A program made the position numbers and the translations under genes. Of a stretch of DNA of 64,000 bases, positions 37,784 through 64,000 are shown one piece after another. The stretch spans positions 9,796,001-9,860,000 of the forward strand of contig NC_135262.1 in the NCBI RefSeq assembly GCF_964204865.1, read 5' to 3'. Source of the stretch: Styela clava (lineage: Eukaryota). Numbering within the stretch: position 1 is the first letter of the stretch; every line of letters begins with the position of its first letter. The notes beneath the pieces are model-generated. The model was not told the origin of the DNA. It did not search any database and was given only the letters and a program-made list of their open reading frames with translations.

Positions 37784-40700
37784 ATGAGAACAACAATTAT
37801 TATCATTTTTTCTTGGATAACCACACCCCTGTGTCAAGGTGAAACTCTGCTTCACTGTTCACCAAAACCGGGTTGTCAGATTGCTCAATGCGACATAGCA
37901 GCAGAATGGATGCAAGATGTCAATTTGGGAGAATATCTCAACAATAATGAGTATCCTCTCACATGTAAATGGAAGAGTGGCGGAAAACCACACAGCGACG
38001 AAAATTTGCTAAACATAATGTACGAAAACGCAAAAAGTATGTTAGTTTGAATAAAATGACATTGTTCAACTATCAATGTCAATTAATTTTAACGTTATGT
38101 TAAATTACAGATATTGAAAAAGTGAAATCAGAACTGAAAAACTCAGAAAGAAAGTTTGTTAAAACTACAGAACACGAGAAAGGTGAATTCACAAATTTTT
38201 AAGCAAGGCAAATGGTTTGAAGCAAACCAACAAACTTAATGAACGCAAAGATAATATATATATATGTTATTTTATGTGTTAATTACTATCTGCCTGAATA
38301 TTGCTCGGCATCAATTTCCCGATTTGGGTATGGTGCCGAAGATACATCAAAATTATAATGAAAACAGCTGATGATTCAATGTGTACCGTAGTACTTAGTT
38401 TTGATATATATATTATACTCTACTAAGTTCTTACTTATCTGACTGTTTTAAACATTGTACAAATGAATATATCGAACGCCGAATGTTAGAAATCAAATAT
38501 TATATAAACTGGTTGCTTGGAACTATTTGGTCTTGTTTCTTAATTTTAATGTTACACTCTTCCCTGCTATTTTCTTCATTTCAAAAATATTTTTTATATT
38601 TAAATATATATATATAAAATAGAGCTGCAGGCATTACGAGAGAAGAATCAAGAGCAAGATGCTCAAATAAAAGTCTTACGTGCAGGTAATAGTTTCATTT
38701 TTTAATATAAAAGTTACGATGGATCGATCACCTTAATATCGCCTCACTTACCATTGGATAGCATTATCGACAACAGTGCGATAATATTTCATAAAAAGCT
38801 ATATATTTGTAATAAAGTGGACTGGTGTTATCCAATATCAATCGATGTATAAATACTAGGGATGGGACAAGATTCGGATCCGGACTCGGATTCGAGTCGA
38901 ATCCATGCATTTTTGCGACTCGGATTCGATTTCGAGTCCACGCCATTTTTACCGAGTCCCTATTCAATTTTGTTTTACATAATTGACGCCTCCATTATGC
39001 GATTTTAACGTTATAAAAGTCAGTATAAGCAATATTTTTACAAAATAATGTGATTCGTCACGTGAGAGATCTCTGAAAACATACGCACATATTGTATCAC
39101 AGGAGCTTATCAGACATTTCAGTCATTTCGTCGCTAGTGACCATATCCCAATAAAAACATCAAGGCTACTTTTGGTGCGCGAACCAATAAATTACTCTTC
39201 GTAAACAAAACAGATAGGAGAGCATCCCCAAGGAAAAATTTATTAACACGTTTTAATTACAGTTTATTGCATGCAATTTGCTTCTTGAAAAATAAGAAAG
39301 CAAGAAAAATTTGCTAAAAGCAACGAAATTATGTGTGCTACTTGCGAAATAACAGTTTTATAGCTAATAGCATCTGAAATCATGCAAGCGTATTGTAGTC
39401 AAAATTGAGTTTCTTTAGATTGACATGCAAGAATGTTAAAATTTTCGACGTTTTTTGGTTTCAGACGGTTACGTAACAGCGACGTTACAACGCCAGCTGT
39501 GCTAAAAAGACGCTCAGAATTGACGGAAGTAGGCGGGCATGAAAGCAAGCTTACGGCTAGAGCGAACATCGCCTGGCATTCATTTCTGTATTGTGGCCAA
39601 AAAACAAGTGGAGACTTGTGCCTTTTAAGAGTAGGTGCAGCAAGATATTGCCTGACAGCAGTTACAATATCAGCATTCATATCCACCTGTTCCCTGACAA
39701 GACCCGCGTTCTCAGGTGCACCGAAGACCACACTATCTTCGGCCTCTTCTGATGATGATGATTGATATAATTCAGTCCCTTCGTAGAGTTCAACACTATC
39801 CGTGGCAAACTTCTTCACTTCAGTAACAAGCAGCCGTTCGATTTCTTGCCGATTGATAGTTGAGCACCATGACAACTTTAATCTTGGATCAAGTATTGTA
39901 GCCAATAAACAACGGTTATATGAGGCCTGGTTCTGAAAGTATGCGTCTCGGGGCTGAGGTCCATTTCCAGGAACGCTAAATCTCCGTTCTATACCACTTT
40001 TGAGGCTATTCAGAAAATTGTCGAGTCCATAAATATCGCTGTCACCAATGAATGCTTCCAATCTTTTCAACAAATTCTCTTTTACTGGTAGAATGCTTGC
40101 TATTGTCGCCTCCTCAGTACAAACTTCCTTGGTCGCTATGTCAAATAACTTCAAAACTCGAATTAAAGATGAAGCCATTCTCCACTGGTTAGGTGACAGA
40201 GTATTACCAATTCCCCTGAAGGGCATATCATTAATAACTTCTCTCTGTTCCACCATTCGCTGCAGCGCGTAGTATGTAGAGTTCCATCTGGTACTCACGT
40301 CTTGTTGCAATTTATGTTCTGGTGCATTCAGCCTTTTCTGACATTCCCTGAGAGCACGAGCGTCGCGAGATGAGCGGTTATAGTGGGCAATTATAGAACG
40401 GGCATCAGCCACGATATCTTTCACATCAATGTTTGATCTGATAGCGTCGTGAACGATCAAGTTCAAAGTGTGTGCCATACATCGGATATTAAAAATCTCC
40501 CCGTCCTTTAATGCCTTTATCACATTCGAGGCATTGTCGGATGTTATTGTAGCAAACGATACGCCCCACTCACTTTCTTGTCTTCGTATTTCTGACAGCA
40601 GCAATTCTGTATAAGAAGATTTGCATTTCCCACGACTAATTTTAGTTGCGCAAATGCCACATTCGGCCTCCGAACAGTCATCTTCACAAATTTTAAAATA

Positions 40701-42324
40701 CTGCCACGCAAGTGACTTTGCTTTCGGTGATGACATCGCAACAGACAATCAGCAGAAGCGGAAACCTTCTTGAAGTAAAGTTGCCAAAAGCAGTCTAATT
40801 CCACCCGTAAATCTTATCAAAAACAATCAACCTTGAGTAGCTTATTATACAATCATCCAAAAGATTCACGCAATAAGTCGGTAACTGAACTGTACGCGAA
40901 GCATGGCAAGAAAACAGTACGTCACCGATCGCGCATTGTTGCGTCACAATTGAAACCGTGTTTTTGCCGTTTTCATTGTGACGTCACGGACTCGACGGAT
41001 TCGACTCGAGTCCATGACCTATTACTCGGATTCGCCGAATCTCTGTAATGCCGGACTCGTCCCATCCCTAATAAATACCTTCAAAAAACTAGCGTGCTTT
41101 ACGACACACATTTCTGGCATTAGACTCGCTGTTATTTAATTCCTGCCAAATATTTGTATCGCATCAAGATAAAATTGCGTTTCTTTCATTAATTAATGAA
41201 TGTTATCTTATTGAACGTTCCCATTATTTGATGGGTAAATATCTATGCCCCCGGATTAAAAACAGGGTGAATCGATCGAGTCCTCTATATTTTGCGCGAA
41301 CGTAGAGTGGTTTGTGCAGGTTTTCATTACGGCTTGTTATGCGTTTGATCATAGATTACAATAAAAATATATATTTTGCTATTATCTAAGAAAATATCAT
41401 TTATTTGAAATATCTATTTTATTACTAAGCGTTGACAAGTATGGAAGAAAAACTGAAGAAGATCGAAAAGTCAAATCATCCGTTCATCACTCCAATTACT
41501 ACAGCACCACCGATGAAAGATTCAGGTTTGAATAACTAATCAAAGAATATTGAATTCATTTTTGAACGAGTATAATTCAATTCATTTATTATTCCGTAAC
41601 GTAATGTCCATATGAAAACAGAAAAACACGGAACATTTATTATATAAAAAAAATAGAACGCAATAAATAAGCACAGTTGAAAAAAAATGAGATGACGTGA
41701 AATTCACCATAAGCACTCTTGTAGAAAACTCCGTTATAAATATATTATTCAATTGTGTTATATTATATTACTATGAAAACATCACATTACGTTATTTTCA
41801 TCACACGCATTCAACAGTGTGCGAAATAAAGACAACAAACTCGTGTTATTCGATTACGATACATAAGAGGCTCGATATTGATTATTATGAAGCGGAAAAC
41901 ATTTGTAAGAAGAGAAATTCTGTCATTGCTCAGATTTACGATGAAAAATCCTACGAAACTATTATCAATCATTCGAGAAAAACAATGCCAGCACAAGAGA
42001 ATTGGATCCAACTTTGGATTGGAAGTACGATCAACCCACTAGTAAGTTAGAAACAATTTGGAGAAGAGAACTTGATATATATATATATATACAGAATAAT
42101 ATTTTCTATCCTAACTCAACTTTTTTTAGACTGGAGACATAACCCCTACAAATGCATACATGAAATGGTTTCCAGGGCGCCCAAGACGAGGGGAATTAAA
42201 TAATGAACAAACACACATTTATATTTATATGGGACGAGAAGCGACAAATCCTCGGCAAGGAATGGTCAATATACAACCATCATTCTACAGGAATGGAGTT
42301 CTATGTCAACTGCTAAACTACTAA
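37784..42324 (+). CDS. Secreted coiled-coil plus atypical C-type-lectin-like domain protein, 300 aa, 6 exons
   Basis: Exons 37784-38036, 38111-38182, 38623-38685, 41430-41525, 41818-42041, 42130-42324 (903 nt, phase-consistent). Signal peptide; Cys-containing N-domain; heptad neck (ELQALREKNQEQDAQIKVLRAALTSMEEKL); CTLD motifs C..NSCY, YYEAENIC, LWIG, KWFPGRP, GVLCQ. Confidence 0.85.
38857..41070 (-). mobile_element. hAT (Ac/ZBED4-like) DNA transposon, internally deleted, in intron 3 of the lectin gene
   Basis: TIR TAGGGATGGGAC / GTCCCATCCCTA; perfect 8-bp TSD ATAAATAC (38849-38856, 41071-41078); dense GATTCG/GACTCG subterminal repeats; 2214 bp. Confidence 0.95.
39399..40736 (-). CDS. Defective hAT transposase (partial BED finger fused to the catalytic C-terminal half)
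   Basis: ATG at 40736. Partial BED finger AWQYF...CGIC, then SDNASN, CMAH (CxxH), TRWNST, LLDPR-like ILDPR, and C-terminal dimerisation-domain motifs PLVFW and SERLFS. The rest of the BED finger and the first catalytic Asp region are missing. Confidence 0.85.
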   Translation of the reverse strand: MSSPKAKSLAWQYFKICEDDCSEAECGICATKISRGKCKSSYTELLLSEIRRQESEWGVSFATITSDNASNVIKALKDGEIFNIRCMAHTLNLIVHDAIRSNIDVKDIVADARSIIAHYNRSSRDARALRECQKRLNAPEHKLQQDVSTRWNSTYYALQRMVEQREVINDMPFRGIGNTLSPNQWRMASSLIRVLKLFDIATKEVCTEEATIASILPVKENLLKRLEAFIGDSDIYGLDNFLNSLKSGIERRFSVPGNGPQPRDAYFQNQASYNRCLLATILDPRLKLSWCSTINRQEIERLLVTEVKKFATDSVELYEGTELYQSSSSEEAEDSVVFGAPENAGLVREQVDMNADIVTAVRQYLAAPTLKRHKSPLVFWPQYRNECQAMFALAVSLLSCPPTSVNSERLFSTAGVVTSLLRNRLKPKNVENFNILACQSKETQF

Positions 42325-50919: not shown

Positions 50920-51759
50920 ATGGCTATGCAAGCCATTCGAATAGCACTCGTGCAGATGGCCGTTGGCTCGAACAAACTAGAAAATGTGAAGAAAGCCTGC
51001 AGTCTCATTAAAAAAGCAGCTGATGACGGTGCAAAATTGATCAGCTTACCAGAATGTTTCAACTGCCCATACGGAACGAAATTTTTTCCAGAATATGCCG
51101 AAAATATTCCTGGACCTTCTACTGGTTCTTTAGCAAATTCTGCCAAAGAGAATAAAATTTATCTCATCGGAGGTTCGATTCCAGAAAAGGATGGTGATGG
51201 AAAGTTGTATAATACTTGTACAGTTTGGAACCCTGATGGCGAAATGATTGCGAAATATCGAAAAATGCATCTCTTTGATATCGATATTCCAGGGAAAATA
51301 ACTTTTAAAGAATCGGAAGTTTTAAGTCCTGGAAATGATTTTGCTACGTTCGATGCATTTTCTATCAAAATTGGACTGGGAATATGCTACGACATTAGAT
51401 TTGCCGAAATCGGGCAGGTGTATCATAAATTAGGATGCCAACTGCTGGTTTATCCTGGCGCTTTCAACATGACTACTGGTCCAATACATTGGAAATTATT
51501 GCAACAGGCTCGTGCAGTTGACAATCAGTTATATGTGGCGAGTATATCTCCTGCAAGAGATGAGAACGCATCATATGTTGCATATGGCCATTCGATGATA
51601 ATCGGACCTTGGGGCGATTGTGTTGCAAGCGCAGAGGCAGGAGAACAGATAGTATATGCAGATTTGGAATTTACAAAAGTTAGTGAAGTACGAAAAAATA
51701 TCCCCACTTCAGTGCAAAAAAGGTTTGATGTGTATAAATCTTCAGAACAGGCCACTTAG
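50920..51759 (+). CDS. NIT2: Omega-amidase NIT2 (nitrilase superfamily), intronless, 279 aa
   Basis: Glu-Lys-Cys triad motifs [34 protein letters not shown]; NIT2-typical [24 protein letters not shown] and [14 protein letters not shown]; AATAAA at 52005. Confidence 0.95.
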
Positions 51760-55700: not shown

Positions 55701-58700
55701 CATATTTTCTAGTTTCATCGAAATAATTTTTCCATTTTAGATGCCGAGGGAGTTGGTCGAAAATCACAAATGTCTTTATTCAATAAAGCAACTGCAAATG
55801 TATTTCAAGAATCTTTTAACAGACCTGGCTCTGTTTTTGATGGGGAAAATACAGAATCCATTATAACTCCATCTGAATTATCTATTTTAAATTGTCTAAT
55901 GGATGGAGGATACGTTTTGAGCCTCAAGGTAAGATAATATGTAGCCTTTTATCGTTTATTCAATGTTGAATTGCAGCAAAATTACTAGAACTTCATCGGC
56001 TCATTATATTGTGTTTTTTTTTTAACTCTCATTTAGGGATTCTGATTCTAGGAAGGCCGTGTGTAAGCAGCTACTGAGCTCTTATTTTTCCGAAGCACCG
56101 GAATGATTGCGACTTGACTATTCTGGCATCACGATTCGCGGGTTATACATCCTGGGTTCAAATCCCATGCATAAATTGATAAATTGATTTCGCAATGCAA
56201 AATCAAAAGATTTCGAACCCCTCCAGTATGGTTGCTCTTTACCTATTGTTAGATAACAGCCGCTTTGTTCAGAGTGAGAAACGAGAAAAAGGGGAGTATG
56301 GAAAAAACATTTTCATATATATTATCATTCTTTTTAGGCTCATTTTATACCTCAAATTCCTGAACTTAGTCCACTTTCTGCTACGTTAGTATACCTAAAC
56401 CTTTCTTTCAACGAATTTTCCGAGTTTCCAAGAGAAGTCCTCTTCTGTAGAGAATTACAAGTGTTGAAATTAAGAAACAATCCACTCAAGGACTTACCTC
56501 ATGATATCAGCAAGTATGCAAATTGATTAATTAATAATTTTAATAAGTTTGATTGCGAGCTGAAAAATAATATAGTTTATAACTATGACCTATTTACTTT
56601 TATATGTACTTATTCCATTCTAATTTAAACTCGATCTCTATCTCATATAATTATTTTTCAGGTTACAAAAACTCAGAACGTTGATCTTGTCGTTTTGTTG
56701 TCTGACTGCTTTACCCGTCTCATTGTTTTCATTGCTGAGATTGGAATTTTTGGACATTTCTTTCAATAAATTAACTTTCCTACCGAATGAAATTAAAAAG
56801 CTTGAAAGATTAAGGCAAGTGTTTCCTATAGTAGAGAGTTAGACTACTGTTAAGTGGTGTTGGGTGGAAGTCCTCAAATCCTGAGTCTCTAGTCTGAGAC
56901 CCGGGCCGATTCATACACTGAGTTAGGTCTAGCTGTCAGTTTCAGCAAGTCCGAGACATTGCATTTAGATGCATCGTTTCTTCGAGTCTTTGATATATGG
57001 TGACTCGAGTTCAAAGTCAAGTCGAGTCAATGAATCCGCCTACCCAATACTGCTGTTATTAGGAAGATTGTTACTTTGATAACTAAATAAGCAAATCCCT
57101 TCTTTACTTAACTACTTCACTCCGGAGAATTGACTTTCTACATCTGATATTTATTTATTATTCGCGCTCGTTGCTTATTTTTGCCTGCGGCAATATTGAT
57201 ATATTTTGTTGTTTATGTGACAGATTAAATAAAATTTCGAATACACCACAAGCAAACATGTTTTGTAGCAAATTGCTTTATATACCTTGCTATATTTATT
57301 GGTTCAAATATCTCGCATCACATTTATGCAAGTTTTTATTCGCTAACATTTTGTCCGATGAAACATCAATCTTCTATGATTCATGGCCTCCTAACAACAC
57401 TCAACAGTTATGGCCCTCTATAAAATATTTCTTTTTGCATTTAGCGATTCTATCAGTTGTTTTATGGACAGCATTTAATTAAAAAAACTAATAAATGAAA
57501 GTAATTAAAAAATAAGTCAAATAATTAAATAAATCGGAATCATTGAATTTACAATAATATAGTCATTGCAAATGGTACCTAGCAAAAGTCACCTGAGAGA
57601 ACTGTATCGTTTCCCCCTAGGGCAGTCGAGAGCTCAGTTTGAAAACCATGTGTGCAAAAAGTATAATGCAAAATAGGTAACAATGTTAAACTTATTTAAA
57701 TGAGAAGTTTTTAGTCGCATGCAATTTCAACCTTCAATTTTCTTTTTATTTTATTGAAAAAATAAATTTGCTTTGCAGATTTTTAAATGTAGAAGGCAAT
57801 GAATTACCTGGTCTTCCGTGTGGATTACTGAGACTAAACCTGTTTCGTATTAGAGTTCGGAATAATTTCATGAGTCCGTTGTTTTGGAAAGAGAATGCGA
57901 AAAACGATCCACAACGATTAACCGATTTATGCTTACTTCAAGTGAAAGTCCATGTTGTGAAGCAAGATGGTGATAAAATGCAACGACTACCACCAGATGT
58001 GATGCGATCCATTCATAGGTTTCTTAACTTCAAATATTTATTCAATTTTTGTCACTGTGTCACCTGCAATGCAGTTTTTTAAGGAAATTGGCTCAAAGCA
58101 AGGTCATGCACACTCACTCGAAAATAAAAAAAATTGATCGAGTGACCACTAAAATACCAGGAATTAGTGTAGAATTACCCATTAGTAAATGACTATTGAT
58201 GCAAATATCTAGAGCAGTTTATGTCAATATGATCAGAAAAACAGCTACAAGGTAATGAATTGCAGTGCCTGGAAAAAATCTTTCCTTGTAAAATGATTTG
58301 TATTGGTTGAAATATCAAATCAGACTAAGTTATATCCAGAAACATAAATTTGGTTTCTGGTTTTTTGAAGTTTTCATTATCAATTATAATTCTTTGTTAT
58401 CCTAACAATGACTTTTCTGTTCTCCCAAAAAGTGTAATTCTCGAGTGAAGATCGTAGTTTTACGACGCTTATTCATTCGCACAAGGCAGCCTTAGTGAGA
58501 TGGAGGCATGGAATTTTAACCGGAAATGCGTAATCTGCATGCTATTATAGTGATATAATATTTGAATAAGTATATGTGTAAACATTACTTAGTAACCTAA
58601 CTTTGTTTTACATTTCAGTTTCAAACCATGCGATTGTTGCAATGGGCCGCGATATGGACCAGGGTTGAAAATAGTTCGGCCTTGCTCTGAAATCTGGGGA

Positions 58701-58889
58701 ATCAAAAGAATTCCATTTATTTTCAAATCTTGTTCTCCGTCCTGTTATTCAAGATTTGTACACAACACTGATCCAAAGCTAACAGAAATTATTTATGGAG
58801 CATCAGAGGAAAAACCTGCTACTCCAATTAAAGAGGATGACAGTGTAGGCAGGCCTCCTTCGCCTAGAGATGGTGCCATCACAGCATAG
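52711..58889 (+). CDS. LRRC63: Leucine-rich repeat protein, LRRC63-like, 606 aa, 11 exons
   Basis: Exons 52711-52837, 53395-53562, 53759-53921, 54249-54347, 54666-54784, 55328-55444, 55741-55928, 56338-56513, 56662-56814, 57779-58018, 58619-58889 (1821 nt). N-terminal LLRRPRPP; LRRs LVYLNLSFN, LQVLKLRNN, LEFLDISFN, FLNVEGN; C-terminal CDCCNGPRYG...CSPSCY. Confidence 0.85.
54870..55170 (-). repeat. Degenerate SINE-like repeat in an LRRC63 intron
   Basis: Reverse complement has a tRNA-like head (B-box-like GCTCGAGTCC) followed by GATAATTATGT..AGGATT..GACTC, shared with 59125-59370 and 17915-18090. Confidence 0.5.
56852..57053. mobile_element. Small degenerate MITE in an LRRC63 intron
   Basis: Inverted ends AGTGGTGTTGGGTGG / CCTACCCAATACTGCT with internal GAGTC repeats. 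Confidence 0.45.
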
Positions 58890-59370: not shown

Positions 59371-59960
59371 GAGCCTTGAAAAGTTTCGATAGAACTTGTT
59401 AAATGTGACAATAGTCGCTCCCACCATTTTGCTTTGGGCAATGCTACCAATATTCCTGAAGAAAGTGCTCATAGTAATTCGAATCCATGCTAACTGTGCA
59501 ATATAGTTATTTTGGAGATTTGTCAAAGTGACACAAGTTAGCAAATACAGAATCACAGACTTTTCATGTTTATTATAGACTATAATTTAAAGTTGATCAA
59601 TATAAAAATTCCACAAATACATAGTAATCTAACAGAAATTTGTAAAACTTCATCATGTATTTTCTAGTGCCAGTGAATACACCATTATTATTTATAAGAA
59701 AGTCAGTATTGAGTTTGAGCACAACTTCAAATGTACCGGTATATCAATTATAAGAATTTAATATTTCTAATGCTATAGATTCTTTTATTGGCCATATTTA
59801 CAGTGTTGTGTTTTGGGAAGACTGGTTATTAGGACCAGTTATTTTTTTGTCTGTATTAGACATAGATTCTCTTTTATAAATAGCTTTGGTATAAAAAACA
59901 GCGAATCTCGAATAAAAAAGTGATTGCATATAGTTTACACAAAAATTAACAGTGGTTAAG

Positions 59961-60827
59961 TTAAAATCTATGAAGTGCAATTTGAAGTAATCCATATTGT
60001 AAAAACACAGGAAAAGGAATCCATAATTTAAATAAACGCATTCTAGTTGCATGAGTAATTATTGCATTACTACTTTTGAGTTGATTCGCTTGATGCAAAC
60101 GAACTTGTGATGCTTGAAAATAGGAACATGATTTGCATTGAGGATATAACTTCCCTACAATAGATTTGTTTCGTTTCAAATATTGTTCTGCAAGTGCGAC
60201 AGGTGGGTTGTGATCAGCAAAATAGTCAACTTTGACCCTCGAAGACGAACCAAAAAGCTTCTTCCATAGCTTAGAAGCAGTAGATTCAAACCTATTATAA
60301 CGTTTTCCACACGTGTGACATCCATGTCTTTCTCCAAGAAGCTGGATTTTTGATAAGTGAGTCTTTGTGACCCTTGCGGTTAGCGTTGACAACGCAACAT
60401 GCTCAACAGCAAATGCACCAGGATGCAGAATATGACTCGGACACAAACTCTTCAAACGCCCACCGAAAAGCTTGAATACAATAATAGTGAATGCAGCATA
60501 AGAGCATGTATTAAAAAAAGTCTCCTTTTCATCTTTACCAAGAAAATAATCCAATTCTCTCGCATTGATATGCTTTTCGACGATAACAAACGATGTCGCC
60601 GCACATGCACTAGCAACGGTTAATGAAAATGCTCCACATAAAGGTGCAATTTTCTTGTTTGCAGTAACTCTGATAGGTTTCCATACAAAATTCTGCATAA
60701 GCCCTAATATGGTTGGAAATGTCGCCATCCCAGCGAATGAAGACAACAATAATTCGGCTCCTCTTTGTAGGATGTCTGCTCTGAATTCACTGTCTTCTGC
60801 CATGGCTAATATCTTCTGATTCTTCAT
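59961..60827 (-). CDS. Intronless membrane protein with a zinc-binding HNH-type nuclease motif, copy 1 (DH intact)
   Basis: Single ORF; ATG at 60827 or 60803 (gccATGg). Three N-terminal hydrophobic helices, then GCHTCG ... ADHNPP ... LYPQCKSCSYFQ, then a hydrophobic C-terminus. Confidence 0.8.
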   Translation of the reverse strand: MKNQKILAMAEDSEFRADILQRGAELLLSSFAGMATFPTILGLMQNFVWKPIRVTANKKIAPLCGAFSLTVASACAATSFVIVEKHINARELDYFLGKDEKETFFNTCSYAAFTIIVFKLFGGRLKSLCPSHILHPGAFAVEHVALSTLTARVTKTHLSKIQLLGERHGCHTCGKRYNRFESTASKLWKKLFGSSSRVKVDYFADHNPPVALAEQYLKRNKSIVGKLYPQCKSCSYFQASQVRLHQANQLKSSNAIITHATRMRLFKLWIPFPVFLQYGLLQIALHRF

Positions 60828-61456
60828 TTTTTTCACTCACTGAATAGTTAAATTAACAACCTAAGGAGACATAATATTTTAATGAAAAAGTGTATAAGAA
60901 TACTGCAGTAAAAAATTATATGAATACAGTGAGAGATGTGAAATAAATGCTTATAAAAAAAATTACAGTGGTAATATTGCGGGCACTAATTTTTTGATTG
61001 ACATGGATGAAACCAATACACCTTATGTCACATTTTAAAATTGTGCGAAATTTATTTTCTAATTTTGAGTTACCAATGACTTCTCTAAACCTGTACATGG
61101 TAGGAATGTGATATTCCTCACAAAACACCATACAAGTATTGCACCAAACATTGTGTGTTTGAGGATAGATGGAGTACACCCCCATAATTTATTTTGGACA
61201 TGGAACTACTTCACAGGTCACAATACCGAAATTGGGACATATTATCTAGATATCCACCTTAGAATATTGGGTAGTGTTATCAAATCTAGAGAAAACGAAC
61301 AAGTCCATGACAGAAAAAAACTATTTCATAAAAAATGTGACATAAGCTTTTGATTTTACGCAGGCAATTATAATTATTGCAAATAGTAGGAGTAGATTTC
61401 CAAATTCATATTTTAGCAATTGAAGAATCATAATTAAATAAGTCATAAAAACTTAT

Positions 61457-62209
61457 TCAAAATGATATTTTTTGAAGAGCATTTTGCAGAAAACCATATT
61501 GAAATAAGATTGGAAAAGGAACCCATAATTTAAAGAGCCGTAATCTTGTTGCATGAGTGATTATTGCACATTTATTTTTCAAAACATCGTTACTGTAAGT
61601 TGGAAGGGTCTTTGAAATTTCAAGACGAGAACAGGATTTGCATTGTGGGTACTCCGTTAACATAAAGAGTGGATCTTCCTTCGGAATTTTTTCATTAGGA
61701 ATTCTCAGCAATAAGCTTTTAAGTACAGAAATGAATTTTTCGATTTTATTGCCACGTTTGCCACAAATGTGGCATCCATGTTTTTCTCGCAGAGCTTTCA
61801 ATTTCATCATGTGAGACTTAGAGACGACAGTTGTTTCCGGTAGGGGTAAATCTTCATTAGCGAAAGCACCGGCATGCAAAATATGACTAGGACAAAGATT
61901 TCTTAGGCGACCTCCCAACAATCGAAAACTTATCAAAGCGAGAACAGTATAAATAAAAAAGTTGAAGACAGTCTCCAGTCTACTTTTGCATACAAATACG
62001 CCTCGCTTATTTCCATTCAGAAGCATTTCAGTGAGAACAAAAGCAAAAGCTGAACAAGTGTTTGAAATGATTAGAGTCACTATTCCACAAAGTTTTGCAA
62101 CTTTTCTGTGAGCTGTAACATTAATAGGCTTCCATACGTAGATTTGAAACAACCCCAAACATATTGGAAACACCAGAATTCCAGCCAAAGTAGCCAAAAT
62201 CAAATCCAT
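61457..62209 (-). CDS. Intronless paralog of the TM-HNH protein, copy 2, lacking the DHxPP motif
   Basis: 250-aa ORF colinear with copy 1 (VWKPI.VTA, GGRL..LCPSHILH.GAFA, HGCHICGKR, YPQCKSCS, AIITHATR.RLFKLW.PFP..QYG.LQ.AL). The spacer between CxxC and YPQC is 37 aa rather than 54 and has no Asp-His. Confidence 0.8.
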   Translation of the reverse strand: MDLILATLAGILVFPICLGLFQIYVWKPINVTAHRKVAKLCGIVTLIISNTCSAFAFVLTEMLLNGNKRGVFVCKSRLETVFNFFIYTVLALISFRLLGGRLRNLCPSHILHAGAFANEDLPLPETTVVSKSHMMKLKALREKHGCHICGKRGNKIEKFISVLKSLLLRIPNEKIPKEDPLFMLTEYPQCKSCSRLEISKTLPTYSNDVLKNKCAIITHATRLRLFKLWVPFPILFQYGFLQNALQKISF

Positions 62210-63590
62210 CTGAAGCTTTCACATCAATCGATTGCTGCATTCAATTTTATATGTTAATCTCACTAATTTAATAATCTAACAGTAAAAAAAATGTGAAACG
62301 TTATAGAAATAGATAAGGCATAAATCAAACATAAAACCAGGAACGTGCACTAACAAAATGAAATCTCCGAATGATAGAAAAACAATGCTGTGCACAAAAT
62401 TACTGGCAATGAAAAGCAAAATCCACTTATAATTGTTCATCATGATTGATTGAGTGGGTCAGGCATAAAATGTTACAATCGAAACATAAATTTTGAAAAT
62501 ATAATCATATGAAAACAAAATACAATGTTTATACTCAATTCACTACATGATCAATCAGGAATCCACAATGAGAGATACAATTGTCTAGAAATCTGAACTT
62601 TAGGCTTAGTAGTCTGTATTGTGCTAAGCGTTGGTCGCTTGTCATCGCACCTCTGATTACCACAAAAACCTGTGGGATACAATTATGTACAAGAGAATTT
62701 CTGGACTCCTCACCGTTGCAGGATAATTCACGTAAATCAGGTTGGTCACAGCTAGATTGAAGCATTATAACTAGGCAGAAAATTCACCAAAACAACATGA
62801 TAACAAAAAAAAATTAAAAATCAGATGAAATCACAAAATTGAGTTAAATGCCATTTCTGAGGAATTGTATATCGATCATAGTGACCTTGGGACGGGTCTT
62901 TTATTTTTTTTTATTGTAATAAGTAAATACGTTTCCTACTTTTGAATTAAACGACATGCTTGCCAAATTGAAATCATATAGTAATAGTGAATGAATCTCT
63001 TAAATCACACAAAGGCGTGGATTTGAATCAAATAAAATAATTTATGTGTAAGGGGATTACTCGACTCTCGAGTTAAAGTCTGACCGAGTAAATTCAGTGA
63101 ACCAGTGAACATCAAAAAAATATTCAATGTAGAACAGAAATAGCCAAAACAATTTACTATTACAAATGAATTCTGAAAAAATATTGGATGGTATATGAAA
63201 TATCAAACACATTCTCAATTTAGACATCAATTACTAATAAGTTAATGTTCATCAAATTGAAATTTGTTTATATAGAAAAGGAACAGAATTCTATGATACC
63301 CTAATGACATTTTGGTTTTTAAATTCTCAAGATTGAAAATTTTGAAATTTAACTATGGTATACAAAATTTTACTAAGAATAAAAATACACCATATTAAAT
63401 ATATTTAATTTAGAATGTATTCCAATATTCAATTTGTGCGTGGCCCCTTGGTCAAAGCTGAAAAAATTCCAGTTCTTTCAAAATAAAGTAGTTTCATACA
63501 TATCAGTGACTTTGTATATAAAAAAAGAATTGTTCTGAAAATCTTTGCTTCCAGACATAAAATTTTGTAAAATTCCTGACAAAAATTCAA

Positions 63591-64000
63591 CTATTTGTGA
63601 AGATTACTATTAATAGAATTGCACCATTTACTTAAAATAATTAAACCGTCCTGTGTTGCTTCATAATACGTAGTAATATTAGGTTTTGACAGAGCACCAA
63701 AAAGTTTCTTCGGGCCAGGGGTTTCGATGATATGTTTGGTAATACATCCAGTTTTGCACAAAATTTCCAAAAGTTGAAGAATGCAAATTGGTTGAAAACT
63801 GTATGATGCACATAAATGCTGTTGGGTTATCCCAGGTGAGGCAAAGATTTTCAGATATACGCTGAATAATATTGCCTTCGCATTATTGAAACTCACATCT
63901 CCACCTATTGTGTGCCATGGTCGACATAAAAACTTCACCTCCTGATATTTCTTTTTTATTTCAGTGTTTACGGATTGTGTTAAATTGATGTTACGTTGTT
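63591..64000 (-). CDS. GTF3C1: General transcription factor IIIC subunit 1 (TFIIIC220), C-terminal part, running off the window edge
   Basis: Frame is open to position 63998. FLCRPWHTIGG...IFASPGI...QPICILQLLEILCKTGCI.K...KLFG...YYEAT matches the GTF3C1 C-terminal pattern FIGRPW...RPGI...QPVAVLELL..L..LGCI.K...SLF...FYEPT. Confidence 0.85.
   Translation of the reverse strand, partial: QRNINLTQSVNTEIKKKYQEVKFLCRPWHTIGGDVSFNNAKAILFSVYLKIFASPGITQQHLCASYSFQPICILQLLEILCKTGCITKHIIETPGPKKLFGALSKPNITTYYEATQDGLIILSKWCNSINSNLHK

Follow-up and report, generated by a model that had tools for sequence, protein, structure and literature searches.

In a 64,000-nucleotide stretch of the Styela clava genome (NC_135262.1, positions 9,796,001 to 9,860,000; hereafter the window), two adjacent paralogous open reading frames (ORFs), copy 1 and copy 2, lie on the minus strand, as an earlier note on this DNA had indicated. 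In copy 1, three predicted transmembrane helices precede an HNH domain of a kind also found in bacterial polymorphic toxins. We consider it an even call that copy 1 works as a DNase tethered to a membrane, cutting or clearing DNA brought to its cytosol- or matrix-facing surface, and that copy 2, a duplicate within the Styela lineage, has kept its scaffold but is likely inactive. The substrate would be DNA, and the position at the membrane would limit the DNA within reach of copy 1; tethering may keep the nuclease away from nuclear DNA. Copy 2, whose active-site residues are gone, might have a non-catalytic role in the same membrane, a role about as probable as slow decay. The features of the two ORFs are as follows (window positions).

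59961..60827, minus strand: copy 1 ORF (P0001), 288 amino acids (aa); three hydrophobic helices and a probable NGO1392-like HNH domain, conserved site residues complete
60684..60752, minus strand: copy 1 helix H1 (aa 26-48), predicted transmembrane; family mean Kyte-Doolittle (KD) value 1.34, with 0 of 23 positions more than 20% charged
60582..60647, minus strand: copy 1 helix H2 (aa 61-82), predicted transmembrane, Gly/Ala/Ser-rich
60465..60521, minus strand: copy 1 helix H3 (aa 103-121), predicted transmembrane, with basic residues flanking its C-terminal side
60078..60440, minus strand: copy 1 putative nuclease domain (aa 130-250), the portion in common with bacterial toxin C-termini
60309..60320, minus strand: copy 1 first CxxC of the predicted zinc knuckle (C170, C173)
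60210..60215, minus strand: copy 1 D205-H206, within the first strand; predicted roles metal ligand (D205) and general base (H206)
60114..60137, minus strand: copy 1 second CxxC (C231, C234), with S235 and Q238 opening the predicted catalytic helix
59976..60032, minus strand: copy 1 C-terminal helix (aa 266-284), moderately hydrophobic; membrane crossing doubtful
61457..62209, minus strand: copy 2 ORF (P0002), 250 aa; helices and four Cys retained, active-site face gone

The two copies show 45% identity across 264 columns (E 3e-78), and a genome-wide search with copy 1 or with its Nematostella homolog matched just these two ORFs. The motifs GCHTCG, DHNPP and LYPQCKSCS..Q occur in copy 1 exactly as the earlier note had them. 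To place the domain among known folds, we modeled copy 1 in full length (predicted local distance difference test score, pLDDT, 89; predicted template modeling score, pTM, 0.82) and as the domain only (pLDDT 85). The full-length model shows three long N-terminal helices, strands at residues 203-207 and 226-230, and a helix at 232-246. In a VIA structure search using the domain model as a query against 48,161 chains, the first 18 rows are all HNH-bearing proteins. The top row is the HNH domain of ZRANB3 (Z 5.1, root mean square deviation [rmsd] 4.2, 90 aligned), followed by EndoVII (Z 4.1, rmsd 3.3, 72 aligned) and the GVE2 HNH (Z 4.1, rmsd 3.9, 66 aligned); McrA, Cap5 and Cas9 are among the further HNH-bearing rows. 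Cap5, IscB, Cas9 and retron Ec83 carry HNH domains. Because these rows agree, despite their low scores, the domain of copy 1 is predicted to adopt a beta-beta-alpha HNH fold with a zinc knuckle, in which zinc would be bound by the four Cys; the HNH fold proposed in the earlier note is thus borne out by the predicted model and the leading rows. Fold searches with the whole model were set aside, their top rows being unrelated helical proteins. A sequence search of solved structures gave nothing significant, the best row being the HNH protein 4h9d (E 0.53, domain profile).

Copy 1 is an ordinary member, judged by sequence, of a wide eukaryotic family. A profile search found 62 family proteins, and an extended search gave 271 clusters at 1e-30 and 2,087 when the cut-off was relaxed to E<=0.001, the larger count probably including bacterial domains; the best 150 of the 2,087 clusters were examined. 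Named members come from sponges (Amphimedon, Halichondria), cnidarians (Nematostella, Oculina), tunicates (Ciona, Clavelina), echinoderms (Asterias, Lytechinus, Anneissia, Amphiura) and stramenopiles (Mucochytrium, Pythium, Lagenidium), and Atlas look-alike clusters labeled diatom, cnidarian and chlorophyte are a lead resting on the labels only. Among 201 eukaryote-type sequences chosen, four without the GCH anchor were dropped, leaving 197 for motif counts. The CxxC-DH-CxxC-Q pattern is intact in 193 of the 197, copy 1 among them, and the single positions are nearly invariant (H206 in 196, D205 in 195, Q238 in 195, S235 in 186); the catalytic His is missing in copy 2 alone. Neither Pfam nor NCBIfam gave a family match of weight for copies 1 and 2, nor did Pfam for 54 family members. 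Two oomycete members (P0205 and P0217, from Pythium and Lagenidium) are annotated as the N-terminus of HECT-domain proteins of 1,561-1,711 aa, which could be a fusion or a merge of gene models, and one protein of 281 aa (P0066) bears the nuclease domain twice in tandem, with no hydrophobic helices seen.

The catalytic His of His-Me finger nucleases lies in the first strand and acts as general base, and the preceding D/E/H serves as a metal ligand (PMC5714182, in excerpt). By these rules His206 would be the general base of copy 1 and Asp205 a metal ligand; Gln238 may help to hold the metal. Ser235 aligns, in the alignment to 4h9d, with the canonical Asn/His metal ligand of the helix, and the invariant Gln238 may be a stand-in for that ligand. 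The copy 1 family resembles the zinc-knuckle His-Me finger nucleases (ZRANB3 HNH, 5mkw; T4 endonuclease VII, 1e7d; Gme HNH, 4h9d; McrA, 6ghc) in its predicted knuckle, hairpin and helix, in the DH of the first strand and in the four Cys. It differs from them in having Ser for Asn/His after the second CxxC, an invariant Gln three residues later, no conserved loop Asn and attached membrane helices, and the identity is 13-22%.

The kinship with C-terminal domains of RHS toxins, proposed in the earlier note, is supported and extends to other toxins. Residues 130-250 of copy 1 match the extreme C-terminus of bacterial SitA5 lipoproteins, RHS proteins, PT-HINT proteins and prophage-borne toxins, and a profile built from eight bacterial and phage domains scores 45.9 bits with copy 1, 22.6 with copy 2 and 70-78 with sponge and cnidarian proteins. 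The RHS core is present in loci L023 and L033 and the SitA5 escort in P0065 and L025; a Pfam scan of 22 bacterial ORFs found RHS in six and PT-HINT in one. Imm21 is the next gene in 8 of 33 downstream ORFs scanned, and also at L023, L025 and L033, whereas SuFu, Imm13, Imm33 and Imm38 were found in none of the 33; this is a narrow sample, picked from 50 non-duplicate ORFs, in which 22 of the 33 have no Pfam match. The bacterial toxin domains with immunity genes carry the same D, H, S, Q pattern. In a tree of 91 columns, a split with support 99 sets 40 eukaryote-type domains (classed by architecture, many rows unnamed) apart from 22 domains of bacteria and phages, which shows what appears to be one origin for the eukaryotic form of the domain. 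We infer a single ancient acquisition from bacteria. No match to the domain was found in 400 further genomes of the phylum of G001, nor in GenBank phages. A search for Imm21 in the own genome gave no match, and the search control likewise matched nowhere.

These features correspond to the NGO1392-like (Tox-SuFu-Nuc) clade, for which Table 2 of PMC3482391 gives the signature CxxC, DH, CXXC, Q, partners including HINT and RHS, and Imm21 among the immunity proteins, Imm21 being listed in that table for this clade alone. The same source tabulates clade members in metazoa, stramenopiles, plants, apicomplexans and choanoflagellates. With the signature, the RHS/HINT toxin C-terminus, Imm21 and the metazoan and stramenopile members all in agreement, it is highly probable that the copy 1 family belongs to this clade, a judgment made by signature, partners and Imm21. 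Copy 1 carries the signature, while copy 2 keeps the four Cys but has K, E, E for D, H, Q, and is a clade member by descent, from its similarity to copy 1, without the signature. The earlier note had called the nuclease an undescribed animal protein. Neither word can stand, as the clade and its transfer to eukaryotes were noted in 2011-12 (PMC3482391, PMC3113570) and the family has named stramenopile members besides the tabulated plants and apicomplexans. In the excerpts of these two papers on which we draw, DNA repair is proposed for the eukaryotic form, and there is no mention of membrane helices or of an inactive paralog. The excerpts of the SitA paper (PMC8546572) and of the Rehh preprint (10.64898/2026.09.22.753552) deal with different HNH clades or leave the NGO1392-like one unidentified. 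Teneurin Tox-GHH and CAD/DFF40 (HNH-CIDE) are also toxin-type HNH domains adopted by eukaryotes (PMC3482391, in excerpt). Both belong to different HNH clades; Tox-GHH is inactive, as copy 2 likely is, but retains the RHS shell, and CAD/DFF40 is described as an apoptotic DNase.

Two further protein types were seen behind the toxin domain in bacteria. At many loci of prophage or RHS type (L006:3296-3655, L009:2118-2480 and numerous loci among L016-L090), the domain is followed by a conserved protein of ~120 aa, often ending in V.IGWG and without Pfam or NCBIfam match, which is likely an unnamed immunity family. In 3 of 33 loci (L085:1056-1862, L094:243-932, L096:740-1747) the protein immediately behind the domain is DUF7003 (PF22535), which suggests that DUF7003 is an immunity protein.

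What is added here to the published clade is a predicted membrane anchor and a probably inactive duplicate. The share of family members with a hydrophobic segment (best 15-residue KD mean >=1.5, n=180) is 74% at H1, 87% at H2 and 88% at H3, but only 22% at the C-terminal helix. The anchor of three N-terminal helices noted earlier is therefore supported across the family as a prediction, while the hydrophobic C-terminus noted with it is not general. H1 and H2 contain hardly any charged residues, and the hydrophobic moments of these helices (0.13 and 0.30) compare with 0.51 and 0.86 in the soluble helices of the domain. The H1-H2 loop together with the flank after H3 has a mean net charge of +2.1, compared with 0.0 for the opposite flanks, and the nuclease side is the more positive side in 175 of 184 sequences. 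Membrane proteins tend to orient by the positive-inside rule, and the pattern predicts that the nuclease lies in the cytosol, nucleoplasm or organelle matrix, a location that suits a four-Cys zinc site. Among these, the charges would fit tethering of the nuclease to a cytosol- or matrix-facing membrane surface. A search of the Atlas with the N-terminal helices gave no usable match, which shows neither absence nor novelty. The literature searched yielded no account of the membrane anchor or of the gene pair; the supplements of PMC3113570, outside that search, may show the helices.

Copy 2 has changed in a way that singles out the putative active site. Three of its features are needed here.

61631..61777, minus strand: copy 2 span from GCHICG to PQCKSC, four Cys present, spacer 17 aa shorter
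61670..61681, minus strand: copy 2 KEDP, opposite DHNP of copy 1
62222..62240, minus strand: copy 2 leader with two upstream ATGs, one opening an out-of-frame 39-codon ORF that overlaps the start (62240), the other a start-stop (62224)

The Cys-to-Cys spacer is 55 aa in copy 1 and 38 aa in copy 2, so that the loss of 17 aa stated in the earlier note stands. That note counted the DH among the lost residues, but the alignments place it opposite KE in a wholly diverged segment between gaps of ~4 and ~13 aa, where alignment is uncertain. Copy 2 also lacks the first 23 residues of copy 1. Of the 32 columns conserved in at least 80% of 33 other sequences, all are intact in copy 1 but 27 in copy 2, where the changes are G165R, D205K, H206E, P209L and Q238E. 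Within the second knuckle and catalytic helix, four near relatives share the same residue at 14 positions, and copy 2 departs from them at 7. When positions at which copy 1 and the four near relatives agree are taken as ancestral, 16 of 18 on the strand-loop-helix active face have changed in copy 2 compared with 13 of 67 elsewhere. Off the active face, changes have hit 1 of 22 highly conserved positions and 12 of 45 others (P = 0.047). Likewise, the identity of copy 2 to copy 1 in the DH segment is 22/54 nucleotides and 4/18 residues, compared with 72/90 nucleotides and 23/30 residues in the C-terminal 30 codons. In a tree of 36 sequences and 226 columns the two copies are sisters (support 87), and the branch of copy 2 (0.83) is 3.6 times that of copy 1 (0.23). 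Copy 2 thus appears to be a Styela-lineage duplicate and is likely inactive as a nuclease, in line with the loss of the active site reported earlier: Asp, His and Gln have been replaced and the face selectively changed. That the loss is nearly confined to the predicted active-site face provides an independent mark of where catalysis should occur.

Between the copies dS (synonymous divergence) is ~1.9 and dN (non-synonymous divergence) ~0.45, and 22 of 45 fourfold sites differ. When neutral drift of 0.2 substitutions/site was simulated, the frame was still open in 12 of 2,000 runs. The open frame of copy 2 and the sparing of conserved positions off its active face suggest that the scaffold was selected for while the active site eroded. 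Both copies appear to be transcribed. Runs X1, X2 and X5 (three studies) join the introns of a neighboring gene and were taken as RNA on that ground, whereas X10 reads through. Copy 1 is covered by contigs of X1, X2 and X5 and copy 2 by those of X1, X2, X5, X7 and X9; these contigs carry no level or strand. X1, X2 and X5 have separate contigs over each ORF, and one X9 contig spans both without proving a single transcript. No leader sequence indicating trans-splicing or an operon was seen, and the copy 2 contigs of several runs end near 62257-62272. A divergent allele from run X3, with 11 differences in 143 bases, lies over the eroded segment of copy 2 (window 61626-61768), where the RefSeq allele differs at five residues.

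A number of observations weigh against our reading. For copy 2, they mostly favor a decaying duplicate, retained for a while, now little constrained and with no role with copy 1, an explanation to which we give a little less than even chances. The boundaries of the active-face region were set after the data had been seen. Among the variants listed, 8 of 10 coding variants in copy 2 are non-synonymous, close to a neutral expectation of 0.77 (4 of 7 in copy 1, a contrast that is not significant), and the RefSeq Styela clava allele has a different residue from copy 2 at 10 of 250 positions, of which five fall within aa 158-185. The leader of copy 2 has the upstream ATGs, whereas the 43 bases preceding copy 1 contain no ATG, and a word-limited search for an ortholog of copy 2 found only copy 2 itself among 717 candidates. 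The long branch of copy 2 and the His at the catalytic position of every other relative seen point the same way. Against decay, no stop or frameshift occurs among the variants listed in the ORF, the conserved positions off the active face have been spared, and the far greater divergence of the DH segment than of the C-terminal 30 codons implies that the scaffold outlasted the active site. On the checks of dN/dS and expression proposed in the earlier note, transcription and past constraint are indicated, and the current polymorphism looks neutral.

For copy 1 and its family, the structure scores are low. Foldseek, the search recommended earlier, returned nothing at E<=0.001 with the whole or the domain model; only the VIA search placed HNH rows first, with all Z-scores <8, a range that may reflect a common arrangement. 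The site is non-standard, because Ser replaces the canonical Asn/His after the second CxxC, the copy 1 helices are only moderately hydrophobic (KD 1.4-1.6), the charge counts come from related, non-independent sequences, and DNA binding is another possible use of the basic stretch that follows H3. The anchor and its sidedness remain a prediction for these reasons. In the literature searched we found no activity test of any clade member, and the domain tree, although it separates the two types where the earlier note had proposed a test for nesting, does not give the direction of transfer, because it has no outgroup, 91 columns and many unnamed rows. The non-standard ligand, the moderate hydrophobicity and the weak structure scores would suit a eukaryotic domain that is not a DNase, being an RNA cutter or a binder of nucleic acid or metal without cutting, with helices forming a soluble bundle. 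We regard this as improbable, since the same D, H, S, Q pattern occurs in bacterial toxin domains with immunity genes and the near exclusion of charges from H1 and H2 and their moments are unlike those of soluble helices.

A second explanation, unlikely yet with a better claim, is that the family is a nuclear or organellar enzyme of DNA repair or processing, held by its helices at the inner membrane of the nuclear envelope or of an organelle, beside the cell's own DNA. Zhang et al. (2011; PMC3113570, in excerpt) reasoned from conservation that a toxin role is improbable for the eukaryotic form, and suggested that it may be a repair enzyme. The site is invariant across distant eukaryotes, the genome has only two copies, the top structural row belongs to the repair enzyme ZRANB3 (within about 1 in Z of EndoVII and the GVE2 HNH), and the charge pattern is equally consistent with a nucleoplasm- or matrix-facing orientation. 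Nevertheless, a typical member has no attached DNA-binding, helicase or targeting domain, and the tunicate members are mutually only ~30-50% identical. The earlier note had compared the pair to a toxin with its immunity protein, with copy 1 as an immune or cell-death effector and copy 2 as its binding inhibitor. The domain's toxin ancestry, the adjacency of the genes and their joint coverage in spliced runs are compatible with this, and membrane-bound nucleases can be antiviral, as is SNIPE (PMC13190303, in excerpt). However, the analogy finds no support: no second His-less copy was seen among the 197 sequences, so that most species appear to be without an inactive partner, although these derive from the best 150 of the 2,087 clusters and ranking by profile score favors intact motifs, so inactive paralogs elsewhere may be under-sampled. 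In addition, the word-limited search found no copy 2 ortholog, the family is not expanded in the Styela genome, and the copy 2 domain is net basic (16 K/R, 11 D/E), unlike immunity proteins that act by acidic DNA mimicry (10.64898/2026.09.22.753552, in excerpt). We give this explanation only a slim chance, the lowest of those considered.

The pair sits between a plus-strand LRR-like gene (leucine-rich repeat) and GTF3C1, the largest subunit of TFIIIC. The LRR-like gene (window 56336-58889, plus strand) is spliced and convergent with copy 1, and one of its introns (~56815-57776) has apparent GC..AG ends. GTF3C1 (L003:2-5356, minus strand; window 63594-63998, minus strand) has an uninterrupted frame of 1,785 codons, which apparently continues for 135 codons into the window. 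A carbon-nitrogen hydrolase gene of the nitrilase family, 9 kb from the pair (window 50923-51756, plus strand), is a single uninterrupted frame of 278 codons, and a hAT transposase-like frame of 449 codons with a BED finger and dimerization domain lies at window 39402-40748 (minus strand). The pair is intronless, as the earlier note had pointed out for an intron-rich genome, but this is not remarkable here, and because neighboring genes are also uninterrupted the intronless state does not point to a foreign source. A recent arrival in Styela by horizontal transfer was considered and rejected, as the tunicate members cluster (support 99), the GC content matches that of the window and the neighbors are intronless too. 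One further feature lies downstream of copy 1, where an X1 contig ends at 59553.

59569..59574, minus strand: AATAAA, possible polyadenylation signal of copy 1

In its broadest form, the reading of copy 1 as a tethered DNase would make the eukaryotic family, from sponges to oomycetes, a toxin-derived membrane nuclease that leaves the nucleus untouched but destroys viral, bacterial or organellar DNA that enters or strays, a counterpart of SNIPE, with the dead twin of Styela tuning the DNase from within the same membrane; we hold little expectation of this extension. SNIPE is a membrane-bound anti-phage nuclease of E. coli (PMC13190303, in excerpt), and the likeness is one of principle only, namely that a membrane-confined nuclease could spare the cell's own DNA. 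SNIPE is bacterial, and the analogy is drawn without a claim of homology. Because the pair seems restricted to one lineage, it matters less than the family. The predicted membrane anchor shifts the published guess of DNA repair and suggests a DNase controlled by location, and a near-invariant nuclease-type site from sponges to stramenopiles, without a Pfam model, makes the family an open and easily tested target.

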